DNA of 64,000 nt from a plasmid. Below the pieces are notes generated by a model. That model searched no databases and had not been told where the DNA came from. It saw only the letters and a list, made by a program, of their open reading frames with translations. The first letter of the stretch is position 1, and each line of letters opens with the position of its first letter. This document shows, in pieces, positions 9,423 through 64,000 of this stretch. Where the stretch lies: sequence record NZ_CP015380.1. One strand, written 5' to 3'. The translations under genes were made by a program, and so were the position numbers.

Positions 9423-12012
9423 ATGATGAGTTTTAGCCAGGTGAAGTCGGCAGGCGGAGCAGCAGGCTACTACACCGACAAAGACAATTATTACGTCTTG
9501 GGCAGTATGGATGACCGTTGGCATGGCGAGGGCGCCAAGCTGTTGGGTTTAGAGGGCTGCATCGATAAAGACACCTTCACCCGTGCGCTTAAGGGATTAC
9601 TGCCTGACGGTTCCGATTTGTCCCGTCTGCAGGGTGGCAGTAATAAGCACCGTCTGGGCTATGACCTGACTTTCTCTGCACCCAAGAGTGTTTCGGTGAT
9701 GGCGATGCTGGGCGGTGATAAACGCCTGATTGAAGCCCATAACGTTGCGTAATGAGGCAGGGGAAAGCCAACAGATAAAACTGTCGGCGTTAAATAGCCA
9801 GTGGTCGTTGTATCGCTCAGAGCAGCTGCCGGTTGCCGTGGGGGAAAAACTGAACGTGCTGGGGAAAATGCCAGAGCACAAACTGCGCGCCGGTGATGAT
9901 CTCAACGTGGTCAGTCATGCCGAGGGCAAGATAGCCGTGGTACGTAATGGGAAAGGAGTCGCTCAGCCGCTACCCGTGGGCAATTCACCGTTCTCTGCGA
10001 TAAAGGTGGGGCATGCGTGGGTGGAGGGATTAGGGCGCTCGGTCAGTGATGACGCTACGGTCTTTGTGGCCGCAAGCAACCGCGACCTCGACAAGATGAC
10101 CTTGAACCAACTGTCGCGCAGCGGCGCACAGATACAGATGTATTCGGCGCAAAGCCCCGAAAAAACGGCTGAAAAACTCACACGTCATCCGGCGTTTAAG
10201 GTTGTGACGCAGCAGATAAAAGCCGTGGCGGGCGAGTCGGTTCTCGATGAGGCGCTACAGCACCAGAAAACAGCGCTCAATACGCCGGTACAGCAGGCGA
10301 TGCATTTGGCTATCCCCACGCTTGAAAACCAAAAACTGGCGTTTTCGCACGTCTCTCTTCTGGCGGCGGCGCAGGAGTTCGGTAACGGTAAGCTCTCGCT
10401 GCCGGCGATTGAGCAAGAGGTTCAGCAGCAGGTCAAAGAGGGGGCATTAATCGCGGTCGATGTCGCTCAAGGGCACGGCAATGATTTGCTGGTCTCTCGG
10501 GTGTCCTTTGAGGCAGAAAAAAGCATTATTCGCCATATCGCCAAGGGGAAAGAGGCGGTCGCACCTCTGATGAATGACGTCCCCGAGAGCCTCTTAGCAG
10601 GGTTGACGACGGGTCAACAGGCGGCGACGCGCATGATACTCGAAACGCCCGACCGTTTTGTGACGGTACAAGGTTATGCCGGCGTGGGCAAAACTACCCA
10701 GTTCCGTGCGGTGATGCAGGCCATTAATACCTTGCCTGAAGAATATCGTCCTCGCGTCATCGGGCTAGGTCCTACTCATCGCGCGGTGGGAGAGATGCGT
10801 GGTGCGGGGCTTGATGCCCAAACGCTGGCCTCTTTTCTCTATGACACCGCACAGCAGCAGCGGCAGGGGGAAACACCGGATTATCGTAATACGGTTTTTG
10901 TGGTGGATGAAAGCTCGATGCTGGGCAATACCGACATGGCCAAAACTTATGCGCTGATTGCGGCAGGCGGTGGACGGGCGGTCTTTAGCGGAGACAGTGA
11001 CCAGCTGCAGCCGATTGCACCGGGCCAACCGTTTAAGCTGCAGCAAAGGCGCAGTGCTGCCGATGTGGCCATTATGCAGGAAATCGTGCGCCAGACCCCC
11101 GCGCTCCGGCCTGCGGTGTATCGCATGATTGAGCGTGATATCAGCGGCGCGTTGGCCACGGTGGAGAGTGTCGCACCGGTACAGGTGCCGCGCCAACCCG
11201 GCGCGTGGGTCCCTGACAGTTCGGTAATGGAGTTTACCCGCGAGCAAGAAAATGCGATACGAGAAGCCATCCAAGAAGCGGGTAAAGGTGTGAATATTGA
11301 TGAGAGTAAGCCTACGACTCTTTACGAGAGCATCGTCGCAGATTATATGGGGCGCACGCCTGACGCCCGCGCGCAAACGCTGATTGTGACGCACTTGAAC
11401 GACGACCGTCGCGTAGTGAATGCGATGATACATAACGCCCGTGAGAATGCCGGCGAACTTGGCGGTAAGACCTCTATTCCGATTTTAGTCACGGCGAACG
11501 TACGCGACGGTGAACTCAGGCGACTGAGTACGTGGGAAGAACACCGTTGTGACCGCGTGCTCATGGACAATATCTACCATCAGATAGCCGATATTGATAA
11601 GCAGGCTGAGCTAATCACGCTGCGCGATAACGCCGGCAATACGCGGCTACTCTCCCCCCGCGAAGCCGCCAGTGAAGGGGTAACGCTGTATAAGCAAGAC
11701 GTGATAACGGTCGGTGTGGGCGACAAAATGCGCTTTTCAAAAAGTGACAATGAGCGGGGCTATATTGCCAACAGCGTGTGGACGGTCTCGGATATAGCGG
11801 GTGACAGTGTCACGCTAACAGACGGTCAACAGCAGCGCACGGTGAAACCCTATCGTGATGAAGCGCAGAGCCATATTGATTTAGCCTATGCGGTCACCGC
11901 ACACGGTGCGCAGGGGGCCAGTGAGTCCTTTGCCATTGCACTCGAAGGGACCGACGGTGGCCGCAAGCAGATGGTGAGTTTTGAGTCAGTGTACGTTGAC
12001 GGAGACAACTAA
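9423..12012 (+). pseudogene. traI: TraI relaxase-helicase remnant (frameshifted and C-terminally truncated)
   Basis: ORF 9423..9752 (MMSFSQVKSAGGAAGYYTDKDNYYVLGSMDDRWHGEGAK...SAPKSVSVMAMLGGDKRLIEAHN) matches the F TraI relaxase N-terminus. It shifts frame into the 760-aa ORF 9730..12012, which has a helicase Walker A (GYAGVGKTT). That ORF stops at ...VYVDGDN, roughly 1000 aa short of full-length TraI. Confidence 0.8.
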
Positions 12013-14885: not shown

Positions 14886-15158
14886 TACGTTTATTGAGCT
14901 AAAACTATCGAGATCCTGTAGCCCCATTTTTTCGCTTTTACTACTGCCGGTTCTGCTTTTCCGGCCTGCAATACCACCAGTTGTTCGTTATGCGCTTTCA
15001 ACGCCATTAATTCACCAGTCATCGTCGCTTTAGATTCCCTTGCCTCAACAGCCTCTTTCAAGGCTTTATCCAGTGCTGTTTTCCTGGCCTTTGCGGGTGG
15101 ACTTAACCTGAAAAAAGTCGTTAAAAATAGTTACCCTTCATTCTTTGATAAAATCTCA

Positions 15159-15953
15159 ATGCTGTCTCTGTATTTGCTTCTGGTGTTTATGGGGGCCACG
15201 GTTGGTGGGATCCCTGATATTAAGGGGCAACTCTCCGTCGCGGGCTTTAATGATCTGATCATTGCGTCAGATACATCGGTGATAACCTTTATTACCCTGG
15301 TCGCTGTAGGCAAGCTGAGTGGAGAAAAACGGCCTCCCCGTAATGCTTCACACCTGCAGAACAGTCTTTCAAATCTGCTGTCAATTTTTCTTCCCACGCT
15401 CTCTCAGTTCATCACGGTGGCGGCCGGCTTTATACTGGGGTTAAAAGGGTTAATGCCCGACCTGTACGCAGACCACATTATCTCTTTGCTTCTGTATCTG
15501 TTGATATTTTCCGTCGCGGTAAAATTATCGTATTCGAATATTAGTATAAAACGCGTGCTGTTAAATAAAACCAACCTGTGGCTAACGTTGGTCACGATAT
15601 TGTCATCATTTATGGGAGCCGCGCTGGCATCATTGTTTATCAACGTACCGCTCCATGAAGTTCTGGCGATCGGATCCGGTTTTGTATGGTATACCCTTTC
15701 TGGAACGCTGTTCACAAAAATGGGCAATCCTCTGTTAGGAACCGTGGCTTTCTTAAGCGAACTGTTTCGCGGGATATCTGCGCTGATGCTCATTCCGCTG
15801 ATTTCGCGGTTCGGTTACAGCACCGCTACCATCGCTATATCCGGTTCAACGGCTCTTGATGTGACGCTGCCGGTTGCGCGACTTATATCCCTTTCTTCTA
15901 TTACCTTTAAAGAGGCCTTTTGGCAGCGGAGAAAGGACAGTAGAAAAACTTAA
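15159..15953 (+). CDS. DUF340/LysO(YbjE)-like inner membrane protein
   Basis: A 264-aa polytopic membrane protein with two homologous halves. The assignment to the LysO family is by overall resemblance only. Confidence 0.4.
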   Translation: MLSLYLLLVFMGATVGGIPDIKGQLSVAGFNDLIIASDTSVITFITLVAVGKLSGEKRPPRNASHLQNSLSNLLSIFLPTLSQFITVAAGFILGLKGLMPDLYADHIISLLLYLLIFSVAVKLSYSNISIKRVLLNKTNLWLTLVTILSSFMGAALASLFINVPLHEVLAIGSGFVWYTLSGTLFTKMGNPLLGTVAFLSELFRGISALMLIPLISRFGYSTATIAISGSTALDVTLPVARLISLSSITFKEAFWQRRKDSRKT

Positions 15954-16110
15954 CCACGGCGATTGACCTGATTTCATCGACTAATGACCTGTGAGCATGT
16001 CACGGCCCATCCCTTCCTCCTCTTATAGTAAAGCTACTCGCAGCCACCCAGCCTGATTATGCTAAACGCAGTAGCTGGGCTTCAAATCTAATGAATCACT
16101 GGAGCAAATA

Positions 16111-16890
16111 ATGAAATTAACGCAAATCCGCAATGCCACTCTCTTGCTGCAATATGCCGGTAAAAAATTCCTTATCGACCCAATGCTCGCAGAAAAGGAA
16201 GCCTGGGATGGTTTTGCCGGAAGTGCCCGCCCGCACCTGCGTAATCCCATGGTTGCCTTGCCTGTGCCTGTAGAAGATTTACTGGCTGTTGATGCCGTTA
16301 TCCTGACCCACACTCATACCGATCATTGGGACGAAGCAGCACAGCAGTCTGTTCCTAAAGACATGCTTATTTATACGCAGGATGAAAAAGATGCGGCGCT
16401 GATCCGTTCTCAGGGCTTTCTTAACGTCCGCGTTCTGAAAGATGAAAATCATTTTGTTGACGGACTGACGATTTATAAAACTGACGGCCAGCACGGCAGT
16501 AACGAACTATACGCCGATACCCAATTGGGTGATTTACTGGGTGACGCATGCGGTCTGGTCTTCACGCATCATGATGAAAAAACGCTTTATATCGCCGGTG
16601 ATACCGTCTGGGTCAAGCCTTATATAAAAAGCCTTCAGCGCTTCAAGCCGGAGATTGTGGTACTCAATACCGGCTATGCGGTCAACGACCTGTACGGTCC
16701 GATCATCATGGGAAAAGAAGATACCTTACGCACACTTAAGATGTTGCCGACTGCGACCATCGTGGCGTCTCACATGGAATCAATCAATCATTGCCTCCTT
16801 ACCCGCGCAGAATTACGCGAGTTCTCACTTGAACATGGCATTGAAGATAAAGTCCTTATTCCTGCAGACGGTGAAACAATGTCTTTCTGA
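16111..16890 (+). CDS. MBL-fold metallo-hydrolase
   Basis: HxHxDH motif in ILTHTHTDHWD, with a later conserved His/Asp (FTHHDE...GD). Confidence 0.7.
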   Translation: MKLTQIRNATLLLQYAGKKFLIDPMLAEKEAWDGFAGSARPHLRNPMVALPVPVEDLLAVDAVILTHTHTDHWDEAAQQSVPKDMLIYTQDEKDAALIRSQGFLNVRVLKDENHFVDGLTIYKTDGQHGSNELYADTQLGDLLGDACGLVFTHHDEKTLYIAGDTVWVKPYIKSLQRFKPEIVVLNTGYAVNDLYGPIIMGKEDTLRTLKMLPTATIVASHMESINHCLLTRAELREFSLEHGIEDKVLIPADGETMSF

Positions 16891-16919
16891 TAAGCCAATA
16901 AGATTTATTTGGGCGAAAA

Positions 16920-17993
16920 ATGTATTCCGACAGGTCACCTGTTATCCTCTGGTCAATCGGAATCAGCAATACTGCCGCCGGTGATCTGGTGGCTCTCCTT
17001 TACGGCAAGGTTAACGTTATGTCTGTATTGACGGTCGCCGTGATTGCCACGGCCGGATTCAGCCCTTTTCACTTTTCAGTCCCCTGTATTATTTTCGGAC
17101 AGTCTATGCCGCAGTCGGATTTATTCCGCGTGGAAATTTGTGCTGAAAAACCGGGCGTCGTCCTGTCAGATATTGGCCTGTCAATCAATGTGAAACATGG
17201 CCTCGAGCTACTTGACGTCGCAGACATTGTTATCGTGCCCTACTGGAATCATCCGGAAGAGCGACCTTCTCAGGCGCTACTTGACAAGCTGATAAGCGCA
17301 TGGCAGCGCGGCGCAGAAGTGGTTGGGCTTTGTCTCGGTGCATACGTGCTGGCCTATTCTGGGTTACTGGATCAGCGCCGGGCGGTAACACACTGGGAGT
17401 TCGAACAGGACTTCGTTGAACGATTTCCAGCCGTTTGTCTGGACAGCAACTCGCTGTATACCAGCGATGAACGCCTTATTACCTCTGCCGGCACCGCCGC
17501 CGGTATTGACTGCTGTCTTAATATTATCCGGGATCATTACGGTTCAGCGGTTGCTAACCGTGTAGCAAGAAGAATGGTGGTTCCTCCTTATCGGGAAGGC
17601 GGCCAGGCACAGTTTATTGAACGCCCGGTCCCTGTATCTACGCGGGACGGAAAAATGAACGAGCTGATGGACTACCTGCGTCGCAATCTGGACAAGCCGC
17701 ACGACCTCGACTCGCTGGCGGGATTTGCCAGCATGAGCAGGCGGACACTTACCCGTCATTTTTTTAAGGCAACCGGGACAACGCTGGGTGGCTGGCTAAA
17801 CGCTGAGCGTCTTCAGAGAAGCCAGGAGCTGCTGGAAACTACGGACAGCAGTATTGAAAACGTGTCTGATATTGCCGGGTTTCAGTCGCCAATCTCTTTC
17901 CGCCAGAGTTTTAAGGCGAAATTCAGCGTCAGCCCAAGCGAATGGCGCCGGGCATTTCGCGGTCCTGTACCAGTTGATCACGGAAAGGCCTGA
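16920..17993 (+). CDS. GlxA-family AraC-type transcriptional regulator (DJ-1/PfpI-like domain + AraC HTH)
   Basis: The N-terminal class-I glutamine amidotransferase-like fold has the nucleophile elbow in GLCLGAYVLA. The C-terminus has the AraC HTH pair (RRTLTRHFFKATGTT...IENVSDIAGFQSPISFRQSFKAKF). The start codon is uncertain; it may be the internal M at ~17022. Confidence 0.7.
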   Translation: MYSDRSPVILWSIGISNTAAGDLVALLYGKVNVMSVLTVAVIATAGFSPFHFSVPCIIFGQSMPQSDLFRVEICAEKPGVVLSDIGLSINVKHGLELLDVADIVIVPYWNHPEERPSQALLDKLISAWQRGAEVVGLCLGAYVLAYSGLLDQRRAVTHWEFEQDFVERFPAVCLDSNSLYTSDERLITSAGTAAGIDCCLNIIRDHYGSAVANRVARRMVVPPYREGGQAQFIERPVPVSTRDGKMNELMDYLRRNLDKPHDLDSLAGFASMSRRTLTRHFFKATGTTLGGWLNAERLQRSQELLETTDSSIENVSDIAGFQSPISFRQSFKAKFSVSPSEWRRAFRGPVPVDHGKA

Positions 17994-18121
17994 GCGGAAG
18001 CTAAGAAATCATAATAATTTTAGAAAACTGGCAGCCTGATACCGGAATAAAAATTTGTTCCTGAAATGAGTGAACTGGCTCATTCTTTAAGGGGGCCGCT
18101 TGGAAAACGAATCTATGGCCA

Positions 18122-19330
18122 CTCCCGTTTTTGCAACACCGATTTTGACAATAAGTTGGCTTGCTTGAATCTATCCGGCGTCTGAATGGGATTTTATTTC
18201 CGCGCCTGATGAACCTCAGAAAATATACGGCTTCAATGAGCCTTTCCGTTTTACAGCTTCCTCAACAGGCCGATAGGCCGTTAGTATCATCAATATTAGT
18301 ATTCGCAAAACCAGATCAGTGATTCTTTAAACCGGTGTATTTCTGCCGTTATGCTACATAAGTTTGCTATCGTGCAGTTAAGGCCTAGGCTATTCTGGCT
18401 AGCTTGTTTGCTAGAGCACAAGTGACGACAAAGTTCCTTTTCCGGCACAGTAAATCCCTGACCCAATCGGCCAATTTTCCAGACTGGTGTTCCAGTTTTT
18501 GTATGAATACCCTGGCACATTGAACCAACAAAGTTCGGATCTTTTTGTTACCTCGCTTACTAATTCCCAGCAATGTCGTCCGACCTCCCGTCGCCAATCT
18601 CAGTTGAAATAGTATTCGCTGTCAGTGTTCCGACGCCGGGAATGCTCAGCAAGCGCTGTCCAATCTCATCTTCGTCCAACTTTCGTTTCAACTGGGATTC
18701 AAAATCTTTAATCTGCTCAATAAGATAGTGATAATGCTGTTATAATTTCAGCAATAACTGGCTGAGGTAAAAAGGCAAACTATTGTCCTCAGTTGGCTAA
18801 TAACGGCAGTTCCTCGGGGGAACGCTAATGCCAAATTCCAGCAGAAAAGCATGCATTTGATTACCTTATCCTGAACCAGGGATTAACGGATAGGGTGCAG
18901 AGCCCGCATTGCCTGCTGAGATTCCGTTCTAGGTTGCACAAAACGCATAGATGGACGCGATGCAGCTTCACAAATAGCTTCGGCGTCGAAAAAGTCGTTT
19001 TTGTTACTTTTAACGAATGGACGGACAAATTGTGGTGATATCAGCTTTGGAAAATGCCCCAATTCTTCCAACTTGCGAGCCATAAAGTGAGAGCCTCCGC
19101 AGGCTTCCATTGCGATGGTTGTAGCAGGGCATGTCGCCAAAAATTCGATTAACCTTGGCCGGGTAAATTTTTTACGGTAAACAGCCTTGCCGCGACGATC
19201 CTAGCAATGAATATGGAAAGAGTTTTTACCCAGATCAATACCAATGAGCGCAATGTTTTCCATGATAGTTCTCCGAATGAAAGCCTGTCCTCAGCACAGT
19301 AGCGGGAAGGAGGGAGTGGCCATCTCATTA
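18122..19330 (-). mobile_element. degenerate IS110-family element, copy 1
   Basis: Minus-strand fragments include MENIALIGIDLGKNSFHIHC-stop (19263..19204) and ...IAMEACGGSHFMARKLEELGH (18883..19140). The C-terminal fragment is ...GISKRGNKKIRTLLVQCARV...ALANKLARIA (18385..18597). Its ends match the copy-2 remnant at 40988..41328. Confidence 0.55.
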
Positions 19331-19459
19331 AATATCCTACTCTAAGGCGATTTCTTAAGCAGACATGACAGGCAGCTCTGAGCGAGGAGCGGACGCTGCC
19401 CGACAGACCTGATGTGCAACTGAGCCGGTTAGAAAGCACCAGTTTGGTTAAAACACATA

Positions 19460-19497
19460 CTTAGCGTACGTTTCCGTACGGTTGGGCTTCAGACCCC
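19460..19497 (-). repeat. Tn3-family 38-bp terminal inverted repeat (right)
   Basis: Read directly from the sequence. TSD TACTA follows at 19498..19502. Confidence 0.8.
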
Positions 19498-20806
19498 TAC
19501 TAGCGTTATTTAAATCGTGAGTCCCAGTTTTTTTCCGATAACTATTGGCCCTTGTTACCATCGTGCAGAAATAACAATAATATCTGAATACTAAAAGAGT
19601 AACTATAAACCTAGAGTTCATAAAAAAGCGACTTGATATGGACGTAGTAATATCAAGTCGCAAATGTTATATACACGTATATAACAATGAGTTTTCACAT
19701 TCTCTGTAGTGCAAGGAAACTATACATAAATCAATACCAGGTTTCCTTAATGAATATTGTTTTATTTATGAAATATTGAAGTAAAAACTTAAAAATAAAA
19801 ATCCAATAACAAACACATAACATTAATAATATATTTGGTTATTTTAACATTAGTAACTCTATGAAAGACTCGATCTTGCCTTAAAAGTTACATATTCCAT
19901 ATTTCACGACTCACACCTCGACAGGACATTTATTTAATTAAATGCTTCTAGCTATTATAAACATAAATACTATTTTTATAAAAACAGGATACAGTAAAGA
20001 TGCGGTAATGTTATTTTTATCTCTGAGGGAAGAGGATTGCATAGGGTTTTACTTATAGCAATTAAATATCTAAGCTTCTAGGAGAGGGGACTATTAAAAG
20101 TGGGTGTCTTTATTTATAATTTATGTAATGAGTTAAGCGCATTATTTAATGTAATTTAAAGTCATTATTTTGTAATGGTTTTTAAATATTATTTCTTTTA
20201 CATGCATTGTATTAACTTAAAACATGAACGAAATTATTTATTGAGCTACGACATCACGAATGCCGTATGGTAATTTGAATCATGATTAAATACTATTGGT
20301 TTATAATCAAACACATTTCTGATAATTAAGTTGAGCGTATTGGTTAAAAATACACTGAGCGTTGATATAGCTAAATCGTATTGTATTCGTAGAAATACTA
20401 TATATATCTAGAACTTATGGATATTTTATTTTTTAAGGTAATATATAATACAATGGTGAGTCGTGTTATCTTATTAATAATAAATCATTACTCTTGGAGT
20501 CTATATGCACCAGGTGAAATTAGATTAGATGACATATGAAATTATCTATCATAATACTAATACACGCGTTATTTTACTTGAGTGTTACTATCAGATTATT
20601 GTGAGTCTACCTAATATAAGGATTTAAAAAATAAGGTTATTTACAATGACTCTGCATCACAAGAGTCATTGTTATTTAAGGTTATCATCACCACTTAGTT
20701 GTATTTTACTTATTTATATCATAATTATATAAAGCAATCCATCAGATGGTTAATTACAAGGATTTTAGTGGGGTTTACTGTGACTAAATATAAGATAAAT
20801 ACTTAT

Positions 20807-21871
20807 CTACTTTTTAAAAAGTATATTATTTACTGATAACTTTAAGACTTCAAACTGCTTAGCCAGCTCCAAACTTAGCCATATATAGCCATATACTGAA
20901 GCTTCATAATTATTAACATCAGTGTTATCATATAGCAAAGACTGATGGAGATTGCTTACACTATCACTTAGTTTTATATTAGTCATATCAATAGATGATA
21001 GCTGGCCAAGTTCTAATGTATCCTCTATATCCTGTAGTGCATTTACTGTCATATAAATAGACTCATGTAACTCTGATGAGTTAATTATTAAGAAATGACT
21101 TTTCCTTGATTCCCAGTGTGCATGGGCCTGTGACTCAAGAATACATATGATATTGGTGCATGTTTTTTGTATTAGTTCAAACTCCTCTTTACTTCTATGG
21201 CACTCCTTACATGCAGCTACAATCAAAGATCTTAAACTCACAATATCCAAAACAATTTTTTGGATTTCTTTATCTAAACAAGGCTGTTCAATTAGATTTC
21301 GGGAGTTGACTGTTTGATAAAGTTTAGAAAGTCGATTAATAATACATCCAAGTTTTAAACGCCAGTGAACGTATGCTCTCTGTGGATACAATCCAGTGAA
21401 AATTATAGCAAGAAAAGCGCCAAGTATTATATTAGCGCTGCGCCAAAAAGCCGTCATAACATCACCAGCAGGAGCACTAGATACAACGGATAATGTAATT
21501 CCAATTAGTAATGCTAAATATGGTTTTTTACCTAATGTTAGATAGCCACAAATGAACATACATATTGCACACCAAATTAACATATATGCAAATGAAAACA
21601 TCTCGATTTTTAGTGCTATAATTCCTAGTATTGCACCAGCAAGTGTTCCACCTATACGTTCTAGCGCTCTTGGCACCGCACTACCTAGGAATGAGATAGG
21701 CCCCATGACAACAACAAGTGTAATTAATGGCCATGTATGATCTGGTAGATTAGCAAAATGCAATATTACAAATGTTAAGACAAATGAAATTGAAATACGA
21801 ATGGCATGTACAAATCTGAAATGTTTATAAAGAAATTTCTCTCTTTTGGTTATTTTAACACATCCGCTCAC
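20807..21871 (-). CDS. FUSC/ArAE-like inner membrane protein
   Basis: 354 aa, with N-terminal multi-TM region then a soluble coiled C-terminal half. Very AT-rich. The family call is tentative. Confidence 0.35.
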   Translation of the reverse strand: MSGCVKITKREKFLYKHFRFVHAIRISISFVLTFVILHFANLPDHTWPLITLVVVMGPISFLGSAVPRALERIGGTLAGAILGIIALKIEMFSFAYMLIWCAICMFICGYLTLGKKPYLALLIGITLSVVSSAPAGDVMTAFWRSANIILGAFLAIIFTGLYPQRAYVHWRLKLGCIINRLSKLYQTVNSRNLIEQPCLDKEIQKIVLDIVSLRSLIVAACKECHRSKEEFELIQKTCTNIICILESQAHAHWESRKSHFLIINSSELHESIYMTVNALQDIEDTLELGQLSSIDMTNIKLSDSVSNLHQSLLYDNTDVNNYEASVYGYIWLSLELAKQFEVLKLSVNNILFKK

Positions 21872-22228
21872 TTAATCTCCAATTTCTATTAATAGAATAT
21901 ATGGAATTATTATATAAAAAACCAACCCACTCACAAACTATTAATTTTCTTATTATTGCAATCTAACAGTTAAAAACATTTAGTAATAAAGTTTTCGGGA
22001 TTCCGCGCTAGTGATTGAGTACCAATCCGAAATGTCGAATTTTTTAATGGGTGGTATCATTGACTTAAGAATAGAATGATATTTTAAAATTAAATATTGG
22101 TATTGTTAAAATCTAAAATATGAATGAGATCAGCTAAAAAAATAGCGTATACGCCCTTATTATCTAAAGACAAGGACCTGGCACAGGCCTGCAGGGATTT
22201 AGGTGGGACTGCTGTCCCATCGACTATG

Positions 22229-22994
22229 GGTAATGATTCCAATTAGTAGAACATGTGTTTTTCAATGAAGGCCCCGGTGACCTTTTCATGTAGTTCAATT
22301 GAGCGTGAGAAGCAGATTGTTTTTCGGGCCAAACGCTTGATGCGGGTTCTTAGCGTCAGATTGTTACGCTCAATACGCTGAGTGAATATTTTGCCAGCCA
22401 GATGCTTCTCTTTCGGCACTTCTCTGGCATAACCTCCCCAGTCATCGCTTGTTATCATGCCGATATTAAACGGAGTGAGCAGGGTCAGCAGTTCACGACA
22501 GGTATCATCTGTCCGTGGCCCGAATGTATAAGCCAGAATGCCACTTGTTCTGGTGTTGTATGCGTACCAAAGCCAGTGCTGTCGGGCTTTACTGCCGACA
22601 AAGCTCCATTGCTCATCGAGTTTGCAGATAAGCGCCACATCTGCATGAGCGACCGGAGAGGATGTTATTCGCTTCAGCGCGAGCTTTTTAAAGTATGAAT
22701 GACGGTATTAATGCCGATTTTGAGCGTCCTTGCAGTATCCCGGACGCCGACACCGTTGAATACCATTTAGGTAATTTGTCCTATGACGCCGAGCTTGCGG
22801 GCTTCATAAGTATAGATGAGCAGAAACACACGGGGCACTCACGACAGCGAAACCGGTCACGGCCTTTAGTAGGATTCTACCCATGACGGTAAACCTGAGC
22901 AGACTGACAATGGGGACAATGAACAGTAACGCTGGCCATGAGAAAACCTCAAAGCGGGCATTATATCTCAATTCAACTAATTAGATGCATAACC
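22229..22994 (-). mobile_element. IS1-family element, copy A (766 bp)
   Basis: IS1-like termini ggtaatgattccaattagtag at 22229 and ggttatgcatctaattagttg (minus strand) at 22994. InsB-like ORF 22243..22638. The insA region 22650..22920 is broken by two stops and a frameshift, identical to copy B. Confidence 0.8.
22243..22638 (-). CDS. insB: IS1 InsB-like transposase segment
   Basis: MALICKLDEQWSFVGSKARQHWLWYAYNTRTSG... parallels IS1 InsB ([31 protein letters not shown]...). Confidence 0.7.
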   Translation of the reverse strand: MALICKLDEQWSFVGSKARQHWLWYAYNTRTSGILAYTFGPRTDDTCRELLTLLTPFNIGMITSDDWGGYAREVPKEKHLAGKIFTQRIERNNLTLRTRIKRLARKTICFSRSIELHEKVTGAFIEKHMFY

Positions 22995-23275
22995 AACCTT
23001 TGGCGATTTCACACGTAACAGGATTATCCATATATTGGACGAAGCCGAACAAGGTCAAAATGGATTTAACTACCGTGCGGAACGTACCGATGATGAGGGA
23101 AAATCATTCCCTATCACAACGATAAATAGATGCGCATATACATCGTATTGACTCGATCGTAGGTATATAAATAAACACCAAAGTGGTAACTAGGTAACCT
23201 ACTCTATTAGAATGGCTGGCGCATGCGACCTTCTAATAGGAAGCAGTTACCCGTCTCATTATTATAGTTGCAATA

Positions 23276-24730
23276 TTAGTACAAGCCTAAAACCTTCCAC
23301 CACATTAAGCCAAATATTAGGAATACTGCTTGATTAATGAGACTAATAATAAATCCTGTTCGCCACCACACACCGGTCGGAACATATCCGGCACCAAATA
23401 GAATAGGGCCACGAGCATGTGTGTATTGAGTCAGTGAACAGTAGAGGCTGCTGGAAAAGGCTAGCATAAGCGCAGTTGGTACAGTTGGAATACCTAAATT
23501 AATACTAACACTGAGGAATACCCCATATAGAGCAGCTATCTGAGCATTACCGCTGGCAAAGAAATAGTGTGTGTAAAAATATGCAGCATTTAATAATATT
23601 AGAATGATTATCCAGTTAGTTCCATGCATAGTATGACCAATGCTGTTACCTATAAGATTGCCAAACCAAGTTGTAAAGCCTAATCTTTTTAACTGGTTTG
23701 CCATCATAAGTAATGCTGCAAACCATATTAATGTATCCCAAGCATCCTTTTCATTTTTCACATCATCCCAATTGAGCACACCAGATAAAAGCAGAGCTGA
23801 TAGGCCAACAAATGCAGCAATCGTTGGATCGATACCCCATCTGCTACCAAAGATCCATAGCACTAACAACAATAGAACGGTTCCAATCATCATATATTCA
23901 CTGAGTGAAATCGAACCCATTTTCGATAATTCAGCACGTGCAATGCTCGGAGCATCAGGCGTTTTACGAATTTCTGGTTTTGTTAACCAATAAACCAAGG
24001 GAGGGATAAGAATCAAAGAAATTAGACATGGAATTATAGATGCCATTAACCATCCGCCCCAACTCAAGGTAACACCAGCGTTGGCTGCCAATTTTACCGC
24101 GAGCAGATTCCCAGTATAACCGGTCATGAACATGGCAGCAGTGACATCATTGACATTACCGATACAGGTAACTAAAAATGTTCCAATCTTACTTCGAGAA
24201 GCATCGTCAGGTCTCGAATCGAAACTGCGTGCTAGTGAATCTGCAATCGGATAAATGACACCACCGCATCGTGCCGTATTACTAGGCATAGCAGGAGATA
24301 AAATTAAGTCTGCAAAAGCTAAGCCGTACGCCAAACCTAACGTGCGCTTTCCCAGTAAACGAATCATTAACAGTGCAATACGCCGACCTAACCCCGTTTT
24401 TATGAATCCTCTAGCAATCATAAAAGCAACAACAATTAACCAAATTAACGAACTATTAAGATCACTTAACGCTATTTTAACGTTATCAGCAGAGCTTGTA
24501 TCTCCTGACGAATGCACCAAAGCAAAGACAGTTATTCCGATAAATCCAACTGCGCCAATAGGCAAAACTTTAACGACAATACACGCGATAGTGGCTATAA
24601 AAATAATTGTTGAATGCCAAGCGGGTACGCTCAATCCATTAGGTTGTCTTAGATACCAAAATATTGCAGCAATCATGGTTATGATAATTAAAGGTAGCCA
24701 TCGCACATTATTCTGCTGTTGACATGTCAT
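23276..24730 (-). CDS. DASS-family (CitT/TtdT-like) divalent-anion transporter
   Basis: A 484-aa polytopic membrane protein with two repeat halves and conserved DASS motifs (GN..AV-type hairpin regions). Adjacent to malic enzyme. Confidence 0.6.
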   Translation of the reverse strand: MTCQQQNNVRWLPLIIITMIAAIFWYLRQPNGLSVPAWHSTIIFIATIACIVVKVLPIGAVGFIGITVFALVHSSGDTSSADNVKIALSDLNSSLIWLIVVAFMIARGFIKTGLGRRIALLMIRLLGKRTLGLAYGLAFADLILSPAMPSNTARCGGVIYPIADSLARSFDSRPDDASRSKIGTFLVTCIGNVNDVTAAMFMTGYTGNLLAVKLAANAGVTLSWGGWLMASIIPCLISLILIPPLVYWLTKPEIRKTPDAPSIARAELSKMGSISLSEYMMIGTVLLLLVLWIFGSRWGIDPTIAAFVGLSALLLSGVLNWDDVKNEKDAWDTLIWFAALLMMANQLKRLGFTTWFGNLIGNSIGHTMHGTNWIIILILLNAAYFYTHYFFASGNAQIAALYGVFLSVSINLGIPTVPTALMLAFSSSLYCSLTQYTHARGPILFGAGYVPTGVWWRTGFIISLINQAVFLIFGLMWWKVLGLY

Positions 24731-28192: not shown

Positions 28193-31100
28193 ATGAAAAA
28201 ATCCCCCCCTCCTTTTACCTCTGAAATAAAAATAGGTAGAAAATATATCCGTGCCATTGCACACCTGAATATCGGTATGCAGGTTGTATTTCCTTTAGTG
28301 ATGTCATTTACCCCAGTGATGGTCGCAAGAGCTGAAACAGAAGACAAAAAATTCCTCACGACCAGCGCCCCAGTGACAACTATTCCCTATGTGTTACAAC
28401 CTGGGGATTCGATTGCTCAGATAGCAGAAAAATTTCACCTCACCGTGGCACAGCTTAAAACGCTGAATCAATATCGAACCTTTGCCCACGGCTTTGAATC
28501 AGTGCGCGCTGGGGATGAGATCGACGTTCCCGTTCAATCCAAAAGCATCGCCACTGATGCTGGCAGTGATGACAGCGCAGCACTGGCTCAGCGTGCCCAG
28601 CAGGCCGGTCACTTTTTACAAAACAATCCCAACAGCGACAGCGCGAAAGATTTGGCGCGCAGCCAAGCGTTGGGTGCAGCGAACAGCAAAGCGAATCAAG
28701 AAGTGGCCAGTTGGCTGAACGGCAAGGGAAAAGCGCGGGTAAAATTGGATGCCGACCGTGATTTCTCACTAAAAAACTCTGAGCTGGATGTGCTGTATCC
28801 GCTGTGGGAAAACAACGCCCATCAGGTGTTTACGCAGGGTTCGGTGCATCATACCGACAGCCGCAACCAGTCCAATCTGGGGTTGGGCTACCGCTATTTT
28901 GAAGGCACCTATTTGCTGGGCGCCAACACCTTCTTTGACCACGACTGGTCACGCAGCCACTCGCGTTTAGGCCTCGGTGCCGAATATCAGCGCGATTTCC
29001 TCAAAGTGGCCGCCAACGCCTACATGCGTCTGACTAACTGGAAAAATTCACCGGACTTCGATAACTACGAAGAACGCCCAGCCAACGGGTGGGACATTCG
29101 TACCGAAGGCTATTTACCTGCCTATCCGGGCATCGGCGGCAAGCTGGTGTATGAACAGTATTACGGCGACCGCGTCGGACTGTTTGGTAAAGATAATCAG
29201 CAAAAAGATCCGGTAGCGGTGACGGCCGGCGTTAACTATTCGCCTTTCCCGCTGATGAAGTTCAACGTCGATCACCGCATGGGTAAAAGCAATCAAAACG
29301 ACACCCGTTTCGGTATCGATCTGAACTATGTGTTTGGTGCGCCGTTAGGTCAGCAGTTGGATAGCAGCCTGTTGGCGGCGAGCCGCAGCTTGGCCGCGAA
29401 TCGTTACGACTTTGTCGAACGTAACAACAACATCGTGTTGGAATACCGCAAAAAAGACACCATCAGCCTCCGGTTGGCCTCGCAAATCAGCGGCTACAGC
29501 GGTGAAAGTAAATCGCTGGGCGTGTCGGTCAACAGCACCAACGGCGTTGAGCGCATTGAGTGGACCGCGCCAGAACTGCTGAGTCAGGGCGGGCAGATTG
29601 TTCAGGTTTCTGAACAGCAGTTCAACGTGATCATTCCTGAATATCAATACGGCAACGATGCCAACAACAGCTATGTGGTGAGCGGCGTTGCCTATGATAA
29701 ATCCGGCAATGCATCGCCAAAAGCGGAAAGCTTAGTGGTTGTTGCCTCGGCTGCGGTGAGTACGGTTAACAGCATGCTAACCCCGATGGAGCTTCAGTTA
29801 CCGAACGACGGTACCTCTACGGCTAAATTGACGCTGGTATTGCGTGATGCGAACAATCATCTCATCAGCGGTGTCGCCGATGACATCAAAACCACACTAA
29901 GTCCCGTGGGTCGCGGCCAGCCAGATGTCACGGTGAGTGCTTTTAGTGAAGACATGACCCGCATGGGCACCTATAACGCCACCGTCACGGCGGGCGAAAA
30001 TATGGGTGAATATAAAATTACGCCTGAAATCCATAATGCCAAACTTGCGTCAGCGACGCTGTATGTCGGCAGAGCACCGGTGATCAGCGGTTTAATCATG
30101 AGCGGCAAGCTGGCGTTAGGCGAGCAGCTATCGGGTCATTATCAGTTCGATAGTAACAGCGGCAATGCACAAGATGCCTCTCTTTACCAATGGGGCAATA
30201 AAGGGCAAACCACAGGGCTGAATGGCGCTGAGACCATCGTTACTTCAGGTAGCGTGCCGGGCTATACGCTGGTCGCCAGCGATGTTGGGCAGGTAAAAGA
30301 GCTGTCGGTTCAGGCGCGTAACGGGGTGGAAACCTTAGGGAATACGCTGACGGTCACTACGGCTCCGGGCGATAGCGGCAACAACACCGAAGGTGGCGGA
30401 GAAGGCGGTGCGATCGTGGATGAAACCGCAGCACCAAGCATCAGCGATGTGACGATAAGCGGTAAGCTTTCGCTAGGTGAAGCGCTGAGCGGTCGTTACA
30501 CCTTTGTGCCGCACACCGGCAACACAACCGATACGTCGGAATACCAGTGGGGCGTGGAAGGCACGACCGCAAGCGTAGTGGATAACGGCGGTGGAAAAGC
30601 GATCACTCAAAGCGGCGTGGTACCAAGCTATACCCTGCAAAGCAGCGATGCGGGTCAGGTGTTGGAAGTTTCTGTGCGGGCTAAAAACGCTGCCGATGTG
30701 TATGGCAACAGCGCCACGGTGACCACCGCACAAACAGGCGGCGGCAACAACACCGAGGGCGGTGGTGAAGGCGGCGTGATTGTTGATGAAACGGCAGCGC
30801 CAAGCATCAGCAGCGTGGCTATCAGCGGCAAGCTGGCGGTTGGCGAAGCACTGAGCGGCAGCTACACCTTTGATGCCAAGACCGGTAACCCAACGGATAC
30901 TTCCGAGTATCAGTGGGGCGCGAAAGGCTCAACCGCAAGCGTAGTGGAAAGCGGTGAAGGCAAAGCAATCAGCCAAAGCGGCGTAGTGCCAAGCTACACC
31001 TTACAAAGCAGCGATGCGGGTCAGGTATTGGAAGTTTCTGTGCGGGCTAAAAACGCTGCCGATGTGTATGGCAACAGCGCGACGGTGACCACCGCACAAA

Positions 31101-58849: not shown

Positions 58850-59042
58850 GTCAGTGCTTTATGTTGAATGTAATGATGTGGAGAATATTAGCATAAGGAT
58901 ATAAACGTCGTGCAAATGAGAGGCTTTATTTATGAAAATCAGCCTATTGAGTATTCATCCACTTATGAAGAGATCGAAGACAGGTTGAGATTTGTACGGG
59001 GAAGTTTGAAGAACGAATGGCTAGCTAAGCTAGCCCTTAAAC

Positions 59043-59626
59043 GTTTGAATGCTTAACTTAGTGGCGGATTTGGTCCAGATCGTCTTCGGAAAGACCGGTC
59101 ATTTTCATGACGGTATTACGGTCAAGACCGTTTTGCAGCATGGTACGGGCTATTTTTAGGGTTGCTTCACACTCACATTTTTCAATACCGCGTTGTTAAC
59201 CGAGTTGGATACCTTTCTCGATGCCCTGTTCAATACCTTTTTCGATACCTTTTTGTTCAAGCTGTTATGAGTGCGTCTCAGTGTCGCGGCATACGCTGTG
59301 CCAGTTCGCAAACAAAGGCTTCATGCCTGCCTGTACCAGCGATACTACTTGTGTTGAAGAGAGATATCCCGCTAACAGGGTTGTGGCCAGTTTGACGATT
59401 AGCTCCGCAAGATCCCGCTGATGGATATGTTTTGCAGTAATGTCAGTGCGGCCATGCGACGATGATCAACAATCTCATCATCACGAATAATATCTGGTTG
59501 TGCGAGAAATTGTCGGAAAGTTGCATCATGGGGCGTTGGCATAGAGCTTTTCTTTTTCATCGTTTTTAGCTCTGATAATGACATCCGCATTTTATCATAA
59601 GCTGCCAAAAGAAGACGATGATACAC
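59043..59626 (-). pseudogene. Rpn/YhgA-like (Transposase_31, PD-(D/E)XK) recombination-promoting nuclease, disrupted
   Basis: Minus-strand N-terminal piece ...SSMPTPHDATFRQFLAQPDI... (59399..59626). C-terminal piece ...GIEKGIEQGIEKG...IEKCECEATLKIARTMLQNGLDRNTVMKMTGLSEDDLDQIRH-stop (59043..59290). Stops and gaps lie between them. Confidence 0.55.
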
Positions 59627-59892
59627 ACATGGCTAGTGATACCTATCAGTATCAGTTTTTATTTGTACACTCGCGAAGACAATGGAAAAAAATAAGGCGT
59701 GGGTCTATAAAATAGCCCAATTTATCTAACCTTATCAACAATGTCGACAATGAGCTTTCTCTTTATTCGCCTCTGTTTCAGCATCAGGCACTAATTTTCC
59801 AGAGCAAGGTTGCGAACTAACTGTTGCGCGGATATAAGGCCATAGCAGTCGTAGCAATTACGATTATTTGTTTAGCTTCTGTATTATAAAAT

Positions 59893-61830
59893 GGCGATTT
59901 CAGCCTGAAATTCTTGTTAAAAATGAAGATAATTCATAGAGATAAGTATGAAATTAGTATGGCGAATTTCTGATGCGTATCTAGGATAACAGTCCAACTA
60001 TTTTTCATGCCGGATTACAGGAGACTGAACATAATAAAGCCTCAAATAAGGGCAAATTGTCACACTCGATAGAATCGGATGAACAATCAGGTATCTGTCC
60101 GGTATCGCCACGAACATAGATCCTACATAAATTATTTAAGGGCAATTTGCCACAGTAAATCCAGCCAATGTCTCAACGCTTTATTTTTATCGCTAGACAA
60201 GCGTTGTATGGACGGCAATCTTCAGTGATTGATGAGTAATATCGCGACAATATAAGCACCAGTGCTGCATCAAACGTAAATCTAGCTAAATAGAGGAGCT
60301 AGATACCAATAGACTCCAGCTGTAAACTATTGGCGATTTCAGCCTGAAATTCTTGTTAAAAATGATGATAATTCATAGAGATAAGTATGAAATTGGTATG
60401 GCGAATTTCTGATGCGTATCTAGGATAACAGTCCAACTATTTTTCATGCCGGATTACAGGAGACTGAACATAATAAAGCCTCAAATAAGGGCAAATTGTC
60501 ACACTCGATAGAATCGGATGAACAATCAGGTATCTGTCCGGTATCGCCACGAACATAGATCCTACATAAATTATTTAAGGGCAATTTGTCACAGTAAACC
60601 CATCTAATGTCTCAACGCTTTATTTTTATCGCTAGACAAGCGTTGTATGGACGGCAATCTTCAGTGATTGATGAGTAATATCGCGACAGTATAAGCACCA
60701 GTGCTGCATCAAACGTAAATCTAGCCAAATAGAGGAGCTAGATACCAATAGACTCCAGCTGTAAACTATTGGCGATTTCAGCCTGAAATTCTTGTTAAAA
60801 ATGATGATAATTCATAGAGATAAGTATGAAATTGGTATGGCGAATTTCTGATGCGTATATAGGATAACAGTCCAACTATTTTTCATACCGGATTACAGGA
60901 GACTGAACATAATAAAGCCTCAAATAAGGGCAAATTGTCACACTCGATAGAATCGGATGAACAATCAGGTATCTGTTCGGTATCGCCACGAACATAGATC
61001 CTACATAAATTATTTAAGGGCAATTTGTCACAGTAAACCCATCTAATGTCTCAACGCTTTATTTTTATCGCTAGACAAGCGTTGTATGGACGGCAATCTT
61101 CAGTGATTGATGAGTAATATCGCGACAATATAAGCACCAGTGCTGCATCAAACGTAAATCTAGCCAAATAGAGGAGCTATATACCAATAGACTCCAGCTG
61201 TAAACTATTGGCGATTTCAGCCTGAAATTCTTGTTAAAAATGATGATAATTCATAGAGATAAGTATGAAATTGGTATGGCGAATTTCTGATGCGTATCTA
61301 GGATAACAGTCCAACTATTTTTCATGCCGGATTACAGGAGACTGAACATAATAAAGCCTCAAATAAGGGCAAATTGTCACACTCGATAGAATCGGATGAA
61401 CAATCAGGTATCTGTCCGGTATCGCCACGAACATAGATCCTACATAAATTATTTAAGGGCAATTTGTCACAGTGAATCCAGCCAATGTCTCAACGCTTTA
61501 TTTTTATCGCTAGACAAGCGTTGTATGGACGGCAATCTTCAGTGATTGATGAGTAATATCGCGACAGTATAAGCACCAGTGCTGCATCAAACGTAAATCT
61601 AGCCAAATAGAGGAGCTAGATACCAATAGACTCCAGCTGTAAACTATTGGCGATTTCAGCCTGAAATTCTTGTTAAAAATGAAGATAATTCATAGAGATA
61701 AGTATGAAATTAGTATGGCGAATTTCTGATGCGTATCTAGGATAACAGTCCAACTATTTTTCATGCCGGATTACAGGAGACTGAACATAATAAAGCCTCA
61801 AATAAGGGCAAATTGTCACACTTAGTAGAA
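59893..61830. repeat. 4.4 tandem copies of a 439-bp unit carrying iteron-like 19-mers (expanded incC-like region)
   Basis: Unit starts (ggcgatttcagcctgaaattcttg) at 59893, 60332, 60771, 61210 and 61649, an exact 439-bp period. Each unit contains taagggcaaattgtcacactcg and taagggcaatttg(t/c)cacagtaaa, matching the F RepE iteron core TGTGACAAATTGCCCTTAA in reverse complement (F iteron consensus recalled from memory). Confidence 0.9.
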
Positions 61831-62149
61831 TCGGATACACAATAGGACATTGAATATCGTTTTTGTCTTCGTACTGCTACATCTTTCCAGAGGTTTTTTC
61901 ATCACAGAATATTCGTTCACCGCTTTAACATTTTGATTCAAACATCGTTTGGGACATCATTCATAATGATATCGCGATCAGCAACGTGAAGAGGCAAAAT
62001 CACTAACTATATTGCTCCCTGCACCTGTGGCACCAGCCGTTGAGAAAATAGGGCTTAGTATAACTGAGGTTGTATTCGGCAGGAGAAACTGCTTCAAGAG
62101 TCAATTTGGCCAGATGGGGAATGGAGAGAACAATGGTATTTAATTGTAA

Positions 62150-62830
62150 GTTATTGGCGATTTCATCCTGAAATTCTTAATAAAAAGATATCTAATTCAT
62201 GAACATAAACATGAAATCGTCATGGCGAATTTCTGATGCGTATTTAAGCTAACAGTTACTCGATTTATCATCCCGAATTATCGGAGGCTAAACACAACAA
62301 ATCTTCAATCAGAGCAAATTTTTACACTTAGCAGAATCTGATTAGCAATAACGCACCGAACATCGTGCTGATCATTGGTACTTCCAAATCTTTTTCAGGG
62401 CAGTTTGTCACAGTACGTCAGTACCCTTCTTTTTGTCACTTTACAGATTTTTCAATATAACACCACACACCATGGTATCAGCCATTGAGTCAAATAGTGC
62501 TCAACATAGCTAAATTCATGGCTTAGGAAAAGGCTGATAGTCATGAGATGCAACTGCAAATTATCGGCGATTTCAGCCTGAAATTATCAACTGAAATATA
62601 GATAATTCATGAAGATAAACATGAAAACGGCATGGCGAATTTCTATTATGTATTTAGGATAACAATCCCTAGATCTTCCATGCTGCATTCGCCGGTGAGG
62701 TAATTAAAATTTCATTCAGGGCAACTTGTCACACTCAGCAAAATCAGGAACACAATAGGCATTAAATATCATTTTACCATTGCTTGCTATACCTTGATTA
62801 AGGGCAGCTTGTCACAGAATATCAGCCAAC
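62150..62830. repeat. two diverged copies of the iteron-bearing repeat unit
   Basis: ttggcgatttcatcctgaaattctt... at 62155 and tcggcgatttcagcctgaaatta... at 62568. Each retains one or two (c/a)agggca(g/a)(c/t)ttgtcaca motifs. Confidence 0.6.
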
Positions 62831-62990
62831 TGCTGTAGATCTTAATTTTTGTAAGTACTCAAATACCGTCCTCGCTGTCATTCGTAAAAATATCAATCTC
62901 GTGATCGCAGCGTGAAAGGGCAATAACAAGCTCGAACAGCAGCTATACATCAGAAATGATAGACAATGATTACATATAACCACTGCAGTT

Positions 62991-63827
62991 TTAGCATGAG
63001 GGTAGATGGCCTCTCCCTAACACACAGGGTGGAAGTTGTGTAGGTAAACTGAATAAAGCTAGGGGAGTAGCGCAATACTTACAAAAGACGTTGGTCATCA
63101 ATGAAAGTGAAAACGATGTGAGTGGTCTGTCGACCTTTTTTTTCTCAGAATAAGATACTTTCATTGGAGTGCGAGAGTTGATCTCTTCAACAACAGGTTG
63201 TAAGAAGCGACGTCGAAAATCGGGCATACGTGTATAGCTTTGCGGCAGTTGATAACGTTCCATCATCCAACTGATAGTCAACGACAATACACCAGAGCCA
63301 TCAGGCTTTCGATACTGGCATAGTGATTCGTAAAGTCTCATAGCATATGGGCTAGTGATCTCTTTTGTCTCGCTAAGTCTAAATTGTGTAAAACGATTTT
63401 GTAAACCGATAAAGTAAGGGATCAGGAAAGGATTGATATGAACGCTGTACGTCCCTCTAGCAGGGCTATAAGCACGTTTAATGAACCACGGGAAGGATTC
63501 ATAGCCTTTTTCACCGCCAGCGTCCTCTTCAGGTCGATAGACGGTTATTTCCTTGCCTGCAAACCCTTTTAGAGCTTGACGTATATCCTTACTGGCCTCT
63601 GCCGATGTTAGGCCAAAAGTACTGGCGTATTGTGATACCTGAATTTCACAGGTGCCATCATGTTCAGTCAAGGAGCCATCATGACGCCGAATTTGTTCCA
63701 CAAATAGATAGAGCATACGTTTCTGATCGCGAGTTAGGCTATATGCGGCTTCCGTCAGCTCATTGGACTGAACAATGCGCGGACTATTCTTTCTTCGTTT
63801 TGTATTTATGAGTGGAGTATCAGTCAT
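62991..63827 (-). CDS. repE: RepFIA replication initiator RepE (Rep_3 family)
   Basis: [47 protein letters not shown]...[10 protein letters not shown]...[52 protein letters not shown]...[17 protein letters not shown] is near-colinear with F RepE recalled from memory. The C-terminus is ~30 aa longer than F RepE. The six-frame ORF extends to 63887; the start at 63827 is inferred from homology. Confidence 0.9.
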
Positions 63828-63840
63828 GACTTCGCCCGTG

Positions 63841-64000
63841 GAAATGTGACAATACATAAGGTTGTCACTGTATAGTATCCCTGTCAATAACCCTGTGAAT
63901 TATTGAATAAGGAAAGGGTGATTTGTCACAGTATTTAGGGCATTTTGTCACACTTCAACCACTTAATTGAGGGCAAAAAGTCACATATAAAGGGTAATTT
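63841..64000. promoter_or_regulatory. ori2-like iteron cluster and repE operator/promoter
   Basis: The inverted repeat gtgacaatacataaggttgtcac (an operator-like half-iteron IR) is followed by at least three direct iteron-like motifs (tttgtcacagtatttagggca, ttttgtcacacttcaacc, aaagtcacatataaagggtaa) running to the window edge. Confidence 0.65.

Follow-up and report, generated by a model that had tools for sequence, protein, structure and literature searches.

Iteron-based copy control and ParABS partition are usually viewed as separate modules, each with cis sites of its own. In the RepFIA replicon of F, which is laid out as ori2/oriS, repE and incC, the incC iterons bind the initiator RepE, reduce the copy number and confer incompatibility, and surplus incC blocks oriS replication in trans (PMC13028717). 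The P1 centromere, parS, consists of BA and AABA box clusters with a site for integration host factor (IHF) between them (PMC10999674). Binding of ParB requires A2-A3-B2 alone ('parS small'), and box B2 is the specificity determinant that governs P1-specific partition incompatibility (PMC10999674). ParB propagates from parS, its nucleation site, and on F and P1 this propagation is blocked by complexes of the replication initiator (PMC6238139, PMC5002424). As a rule, a plasmid has a single parS close to parAB, 'although some have multiple' (PMC5002424). Here we describe a 64-kb stretch of plasmid DNA (64,000 nucleotides of sequence record NZ_CP015380.1, hereafter the window) in which both site types occur in one amplified repeat unit, forming an array in a 3.2-kb non-coding stretch downstream of an F-like repE gene.

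On motif identity and conservation, the array is probably a composite cis-acting maintenance locus that combines extra centromeres near the origin with an enlarged incC/incA-like RepE sink or handcuffing partner. Its parts are known, namely an F-type RepE replicon and a P1-family parABS system. It is the arrangement that seems undescribed: seven complete P1-type centromeres away from parB, each accompanied by direct iterons, in a 439-bp tandem unit. No description of parS-iteron composite arrays was found in the open-access literature.

Comparison with described replicons and centromeres

By its sequence, the replicon is of the RepE type and close to F. Its Rep_3 initiator is 81.6% identical in amino acids to F RepE (a figure obtained with the intact RepE of a near-identical relative), the iteron core TGTGACAAATTGCCCT is shared, and the likeness extends to four origin iterons in repE direction, an operator inverted repeat, an AT-rich region, a DnaA box and iterons 3′ of repE. 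A first-pass annotation of the window, made from the letters alone, had named a RepFIA replicon and proposed the comparison with F ori2/incC. The name is apt as far as the identity of RepE and the shared core go, but the closest relative in PLSDB, the Hafnia alvei plasmid NZ_CP139993, has the MOB-suite type rep_cluster_1729 according to PLSDB, not IncFIA. The comparison also brings out two differences. F incC comprises five inverted iterons in ~250 bp, whereas here 12-13 direct iterons extend over 2.9 kb with a parS before each group; and F has sopABC downstream, whereas the P1-type parAB-parS that belongs to this replicon in near-identical relatives lies across the origin, divergent from repE.

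For the centromeres, P1 parABS is the closest described system. Shared with it are box A heptamers and box B hexamers in the order B-A, spacer, A-A-B with P1's exact spacing, the box B sequence TCGCCA, a cognate ParA with an N-terminal helix-turn-helix (HTH) domain and a ParB with PF08775. P1, however, has a single parS right after parB, whereas here seven extra sites are located at the opposite side of the replicon and interleaved with initiator sites. In addition, the array parS are without box A4, their spacer sequence is unrelated to the IHF site of P1, and the two ParB proteins are 50% identical.

A centromere made of tandem units with a ParB-family site in each is known from sopC of F (12 x 43-bp; PMC6238139), but the array unit is ten times longer and holds a complex P1-type site plus initiator sites. 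On chromosome II of V. cholerae, the centromere parS2-B lies beside initiator-binding negative-control sites, the RctB 39-mers, and spreading or binding of ParB2 competes with the initiator and promotes replication, which provides a precedent for coupling (PMC3688505). The families involved there are RctB and ParB2, and one parS lies by a control site, with no repeated composite; here, coupling is hypothetical.

A P1-type parS in every unit

The array is located downstream of the minus-strand repE. Tandem Repeats Finder reports a period of 439 bp, 4.4 copies, 98% matches and zero indels for 59892-61843, and a repeat search places seven copies in register at spacings of 439, 439, 439, 439, 507 and 410 bp. 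Copies six and seven are diverged, u6 being 73% (over 220 nt) and u7 61% identical to the reference unit by repeat search and alignment. The 4.4 near-identical copies plus two diverged ones described in the first-pass annotation are thereby confirmed. In each unit, a complete P1-type parS comes first and is followed by one or two RepE iterons, giving seven parS and 12 good iterons in the array. The units are:

59826..61850, strand not applicable, u1-u5, near-identical tandem units with a period of 439 bp and 4.4-4.6 copies (Tandem Repeats Finder, repeat search, alignment)
62089..62498, strand not applicable, u6, diverged unit (repeat search, alignment, motif conservation)
62499..62990, strand not applicable, u7, diverged, repE-proximal unit (its counterpart next to repE in the Hafnia plasmid is homologous)

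Each unit opens with 74 bp that consist of TGGCGATTTCAGCCTGAAAT, a 36-nt spacer and ATGAAATTGGTATGGCGA. The parS of the annotated P1 genome (NC_005856, 58912-58994, with ParB box A, box B and IHF features) served as the reference and was aligned to all seven copies. From box B2 to box B1 the alignment is free of gaps, with a spacer equal in length to that of P1, and its invariant columns are box B2 (TGGCGA, the complement of TCGCCA), A3, A2, A1 and B1; the outer box A4 is the sole parS box absent from the array copies. Box B2 has the P1-like sequence TCGCCA in six of the seven units. With ≤2 mismatches allowed, the window contains seven occurrences of the 20-nt B2-A3-A2 core, compared with 0.00 expected by chance. 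On this alignment, the following array sites can be regarded as complete P1-type parS centromeres:

59892..59965, minus strand, parS of u1 (plus-strand order B2 TGGCGA, A3, A2, P1-length spacer, A1, B1; alignment and pattern search)
60331..60404, minus strand, parS of u2 (P1 alignment and pattern search)
60770..60843, minus strand, parS of u3 (P1 alignment and pattern search)
61209..61282, minus strand, parS of u4 (P1 alignment and pattern search)
61648..61721, minus strand, parS of u5 (P1 alignment and pattern search)
62155..62228, minus strand, parS of u6 (A3 box ATTTCAT; matches canonical parS 3′ of annotated ParB genes in PLSDB)
62565..62638, minus strand, parS of u7 (box B2 TCGCCG; P1 alignment, pattern search, distant BLAST)

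When u6 and u7 were compared with 72,556 plasmids by distant BLAST, the matches were confined to the parS segment. They are located at or just past the 3′ end of genes annotated 'ParB family protein' in plasmids of Enterobacter, Salmonella, Citrobacter, Xenorhabdus, E. coli, Cronobacter and Pantoea; in a Citrobacter plasmid, the match abuts the parB stop codon in P1 orientation. P1 was not retrieved by blastn of the parS region against a phage collection, the match being too short. The parS spacer is AT-rich, and no IHF match with fewer than two mismatches to WATCAANNNNTTR was found in it; P1's own annotated site scores no better.

Both the parS boxes and the iterons are selectively conserved in the old units u6 and u7. 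Between u2, u6 and u7, invariant columns account for 78-90% of the parS boxes and 68-82% of the iterons, compared with 18-39% of the remaining segments. A hidden gene or small RNA in the array is unlikely, since no open reading frame (ORF) of at least 50 aa is present within it and conservation outside the motifs is weak; an Rfam scan of 59000-64000 at E≤1 returned zero RNA families. The promoter and terminator scan did not outperform shuffled sequence, with 19 promoter-like sites where 15.4 were expected and 0 terminators. Accessory P1-type centromeres have been overlooked by annotation, the whole 3.2 kb being unannotated and 'intergenic'.

RepE iterons and the origin

Twelve array sites match GGGCAnnTTGTCACA, the reverse complement of the F ori2 iteron core, with ≤2 mismatches, and two more are degenerate relics, in keeping with the 11-13 iteron-like sites counted in the first-pass annotation. 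That these 19-mers follow the RepE iteron consensus, as was assumed there, is borne out by a core identical to that of F ori2. At ≤3 mismatches to the F core, 15 matches fall within 59800-64000 and one in the other 59 kb. The array iterons are direct, i.e. oriented as the origin iterons, whereas F incC iterons are inverted, and they occur in groups of one or two behind each parS:

60049..60064, minus strand, first iteron core of u1 (core match)
60139..60154, minus strand, second iteron core of u1 (1 mismatch, GTGGCA)
60488..60503, minus strand, first iteron core of u2 (core match)
60578..60593, minus strand, second iteron core of u2 (perfect F core match)
60927..60942, minus strand, first iteron core of u3 (core match)
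61017..61032, minus strand, second iteron core of u3 (core match)
61366..61381, minus strand, first iteron core of u4 (core match)
61456..61471, minus strand, second iteron core of u4 (core match)
61805..61820, minus strand, first iteron core of u5 (core match)
61889..61906, minus strand, second iteron of u5, degenerate relic (unit alignment)
62311..62326, minus strand, first iteron of u6, degenerate relic, AGAGCAAATTTTTACA (repeat search and alignment)
62397..62412, minus strand, second iteron core of u6 (core match)
62718..62733, minus strand, first iteron core of u7 (core match)
62801..62816, minus strand, second iteron core of u7 (core match)

An amplified 'incC-like iteron region', as the repeats had been described, captures the position of the iterons downstream of repE, but the most conserved part of the unit is the P1-type parS, and the iterons are direct, unlike those of incC. 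The very low copy number or strong incompatibility that had been predicted on this basis would be reasonable by analogy with incC (PMC13028717). The parS at the start of each unit, the direct orientation of the iterons and a 1-nt deletion in an A9 run of repE had been missed.

repE is the only long ORF near the array. The gene, the ori2-type iterons upstream of it and its operator had been correctly recognised and are supported by the Rep3 domains, three iterons with the start of a fourth, and an inverted repeat:

62991..63827, minus strand, repE open frame, 278 aa (Pfam Rep3_N 5.5e-32, Rep3_C 8.2e-14)
63136..63143, minus strand, A8 homopolymer with a 1-nt deletion in repE (A9 in 6/6 other assemblies of the region and in Hafnia)
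63845..63868, minus strand, repE operator-like inverted repeat, TGTGACAA ... TTGTCAC (sequence; adjoins a promoter-like site, 63899-63872)
63915..63930, minus strand, origin iteron 1 (core match)
63937..63952, minus strand, origin iteron 2 (core match)
63970..63985, minus strand, origin iteron 3 (core match)
63991..64000, minus strand, origin iteron 4, beginning only, cut at the window end (complete in assembly L148)

The promoter-like site at 63899-63872 is a consensus match only, from the promoter scan. Past the window end, L148, a near-identical assembly of the same region, completes origin iteron 4, after which come an AT-rich stretch and a perfect DnaA box, TTATCCACA. Window and L148 combined give an origin layout of the ori2 type, with four direct 19-bp iterons, operator, AT-rich region and DnaA box. 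Inside the array, a DnaA box with ≤1 mismatch is absent, and the units are therefore ruled out as extra origins.

The RepE of the window is 98% identical in amino acids to that of the Hafnia plasmid across residues 1-231, and the last 21 residues are in another frame. This shift of the last 21 codons by the A8 run is found in the window only; with A9, the authentic stop would be 63079-63081. Elsewhere in the window, cfa (cyclopropane-fatty-acid synthase, Pfam CMAS; 39475-40652) is present as two overlapping ORFs, split at a G8 run at 40044-40051. Because all relatives have A9 and because of this second homopolymer frameshift, the repE A8 is probably a homopolymer sequencing error, though a real inactivating mutation is possible; for repE and cfa alike, the frameshifts probably reflect such errors rather than pseudogenes.

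Partition genes and other assemblies of the region

ParA and ParB homologs are not detected in the 64-kb window by tblastn. The first-pass annotation had concluded that sopABC was replaced by an Rpn-family pseudogene; sopABC is indeed absent and an Rpn remnant flanks the array, but partition genes do not seem to be missing, as P1-type parAB are found past the window end in other assemblies. Six of these (L148 and L154-L158) came to light when metagenomes were scanned for the parS core and when the protein of the neighbouring DUF2913 gene was looked up for exact matches; the frameshifted RepE of the window, looked up likewise, had no exact match. They are 97-99.8% identical to the window, their repE is intact, and beyond the position where the window ends they carry the fourth origin iteron, the AT-rich stretch and the DnaA box, and then parA-parB divergent from repE. 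Their ParA contains HTH_54 and AAA_31, i.e. it is of type Ia with an N-terminal HTH; their ParB, with PF08775, is the protein that is 50% identical to P1 ParB. Directly after parB lies an eighth, canonical parS, which in these relatives is ~4 kb from the seven array parS. Since relatives of 97-99.8% identity carry parAB and a parS just past the window end, the plasmid would have eight parS, bracketing a module of the order array - repE - ori - parA - parB - parS.

The array itself appears to be real and not an artefact, because three other assemblies reproduce its length: L155, L156 and L158, which come from other samples, have 3200-3201 bp between the flanking anchors, a length equal to that of the window. 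This speaks against misassembly, which the first-pass annotation had named as a finding that would overturn its account. The 439-bp units are fewer than in the window in L154 (one), L148 (two) and L157 (three), and their copy number ranges from 1.4 to 4.4 across assemblies; the shortest assembly still holds more than one 439-bp unit and both diverged units. Between the units of the window there are 13 polymorphic positions, with alleles shared between particular units. L155, L156 and L158 show 21-36 differences from the window in 3.2 kb, mostly at the same polymorphic columns and with alleles redistributed among units, a pattern that would fit gene conversion or unequal exchange between units, or possibly assembler phasing. 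The earlier view that near-identity implies recent amplification is supported.

Related plasmids

The plasmid NZ_CP139993 of Hafnia alvei HAMBI_1279 resembles the window not only in its RepE, 98% identical in amino acids, but also in its layout (array - repE - ori - parA - parB - parS), in its direct iterons and in a tandem array that pairs a ParB site with a RepE iteron. It differs in that the DNA identity of repE is merely 83%, that the repeat unit is 265 bp long, with only the parS-small half and one iteron, as opposed to 439 bp, and that 7 kb, including an IS91 insertion, separate the array from repE. This array consists of 4.1 copies of 265 bp at 91% identity, each with a parS-small core and one iteron 54 bp away, and within PLSDB the unit is unique to NZ_CP139993. 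Because repE is only 83% identical in DNA, the amplification in Hafnia is best seen as independent, so that two lineages appear to have amplified different units, each with a ParB site and a RepE site. The Hafnia plasmid also has a repE-proximal unit homologous to u7, which reads parS, ~160 bp, iteron, ~82 bp, iteron.

Some further observations concern the same Hafnia plasmid (L032). Across ~8.5 kb, at 15737-24158, only the IS91 insertion is listed as genes, and the PLSDB gene table is incomplete; this segment has ~10 further scattered RepE iterons besides the 265-bp array. Two palindromic parS cores read TGGCGATTTCAGGCTGAAAT, then CGCCA at 16291 and TCTCA at 15737. In the parB-adjacent parS, box B is TCACCA, not TCGCCA.

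In further RepE relatives (Klebsiella, Raoultella, Kluyvera and others), the iterons are compact, inverted and of the incC type; where a parS is seen in them, it is solitary and follows parB. Metagenomic P1par replicons of other kinds frequently have 2-4 parS 3′ of parB but lack RepE iterons. Multiple parS are not rare, then; it is the parS-iteron composite that is rare. In two metagenome replicons of the P1-RepA type (L050:1660-2600 and L137:1180-2060), accessory parS downstream of parB are each preceded by a ~43-bp palindrome (ACTGATTACAGTGAAC...GTTCACTGTAATCAGT), and a GATTACG/GATTACT heptamer microsatellite is found near them. Another tandem P1-type centromere array, without RepE iterons, occurs at L110:1154-1910 (contig Ga0209371_1000034, 379 kb), with three tandem ~254-bp units that each hold a palindromic box B-A-A-B parS core.

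Proposed function of the array and alternative explanations

The case for a composite maintenance locus draws on motif sequence identity, selective conservation, the cognate genes of near-identical relatives and the reproducibility of the array; from these we infer that the sites are bound and that they influence copy number and stability; any crosstalk is inferred as well. The cognate proteins would be RepE, whose gene adjoins the array, and the P1-family ParA and ParB encoded just outside the window. ParB loading at all eight parS would flank the replicon core with centromeres and nucleate a large partition complex. Once occupied by RepE, the 12-13 array iterons would act like F incC or P1 incA: they would titrate the initiator and pair with the origin iterons, thereby lowering the copy number and causing incompatibility. 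Because RepE-iteron roadblocks would compartmentalise ParB spreading, a parS in every compartment would make sense, the interleaving giving each inter-iteron segment a ParB loading site of its own. The five near-identical units probably arose through recent unequal recombination, and because unit number differs among assemblies, the array may provide a quickly adjustable dosage of both site types.

A more far-reaching and rather doubtful proposal is that the interleaving is functional, such that parS-loaded ParB and iteron-bound RepE constrain each other by roadblock or competition, in analogy with ParB2 and the RctB 39-mers. If this were true, handcuffing control would be relieved or reinforced by the state of the partition complex, and the gain or loss of a 439-bp unit would act as a one-step knob for copy number, stability and two incompatibilities together. 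With two diverged plasmids that carry different units, a link between replication and segregation becomes testable in a simple enterobacterial plasmid, with F RepE and P1 ParB as references.

It is important to point out what weighs against a composite locus. parA and parB lie outside the window, and their presence is deduced from near-identical assemblies. For the parS spacer, the search with the consensus gave no clear IHF site. The direct orientation of the iterons and a spacing far wider than in F incC mean that the incC analogy may fail quantitatively, and the lower unit numbers in short-read metagenome contigs may reflect assembly collapse. The two motifs are not always co-maintained, because the parS boxes of the repE-proximal unit in Hafnia are eroded and its iterons intact. 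Finally, the interleaving may have resulted incidentally from duplication of a segment where both sites lay side by side by chance. Another explanation is hitch-hiking, in which one site type, centromeres or iterons, was selected and the other co-amplified, leaving the interleaving without functional meaning. In the ancestral repE-proximal unit, of the window and of Hafnia, parS and iterons are mere neighbours ~155-160 bp apart, the near-identical units are too young to reveal selection, and other P1par replicons commonly have 2-4 clustered parS with no RepE iterons; hitch-hiking is nevertheless unlikely in view of the conservation of both motif types in the old units u6 and u7 and of the two lineages that amplified different units (439 bp and 265 bp) with both motifs in each. 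Selection for the iterons only, i.e. an amplified incC-type copy-control locus with the parS-like sequence as passenger or relic, would account for 12-13 F-core iterons downstream of repE and for the Hafnia repE-proximal unit with its decayed parS boxes. It is hard to reconcile with parS boxes whose conservation exceeds that of all else in the old, diverged units (78-90% of columns invariant, the background being 18-39%), with a B2-to-B1 architecture that retains P1's exact spacing, with a cognate P1-family ParB encoded by the same replicon and with the independent amplification of parS-small together with an iteron in Hafnia, and we regard it as quite improbable.

The array could also serve as an incompatibility weapon that keeps competitors out, with P1-species par systems losing ParB and IncFIA-like replicons losing RepE to the array by titration, a role that is not exclusive of the others. 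The P1-like box B2 in six of seven units fits such a role, box B2 being the incompatibility determinant (PMC10999674), as do the iteron core of F and the block that excess incC imposes on oriS replication in trans (PMC13028717). Exclusion is, however, a side-effect expected of any centromere or iteron cluster, it leaves the interleaving unexplained, and the plasmid itself must tolerate the array; as the reason for the array, it is very improbable. Dual incompatibility with IncFIA-like replicons and P1-species par systems is nonetheless predicted and would be relevant to plasmid typing and to P1-based tools. The possibility that the tandem copies are an expansion error of the assembly is the most remote, in spite of the homopolymer frameshifts (repE A8, cfa G8 run), which suggest an error-prone long-read assembly, and of a unit number that varies among assemblies. 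Three assemblies from other samples have exactly equal array length, the alleles at the 13 polymorphic positions are patterned and not random noise, and even the shortest assembly retains more than one 439-bp unit and both diverged units. On balance, a composite maintenance locus that serves both partition and copy control is the probable explanation.

Flanks and other content of the window

The Rpn-family remnant beside the array (59061-59560, minus strand) is frameshifted and has an internal deletion, which joins residues 1-27 to 162-317. The related plasmids Hafnia pA23BA and one of Y. enterocolitica have an intact Rpn gene, flanked on one side by the same integrase-DUF2913 pair and on the other by a different Rep3 replicon, which comes with sopA and a ParB-family partition gene.

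Conjugation remnants are found at 7128-12012, where a TraD-like coupling protein ORF has a DUF932 N-terminal part and a 760-aa TraI-like ORF has its start within the 2B domain; the transfer region seems to have undergone decay or rearrangement. The plasmid also carries adhesin cargo, with a YadA-type trimeric autotransporter split into two ORFs (34-1381) and a 2180-aa inverse autotransporter of the intimin/invasin type with LysM, IAT_beta and Ig-like repeats (28193-34735), and its relatives also have fimbrial operons beside parB. At 15080-19350, an HTH regulator, a LysO-family exporter and an MBL-fold hydrolase form a module that is ~94% identical to one in thousands of Enterobacterales plasmids. 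This module adjoins an IS110-family transposase and is a widely travelling cassette, unrelated to the array.

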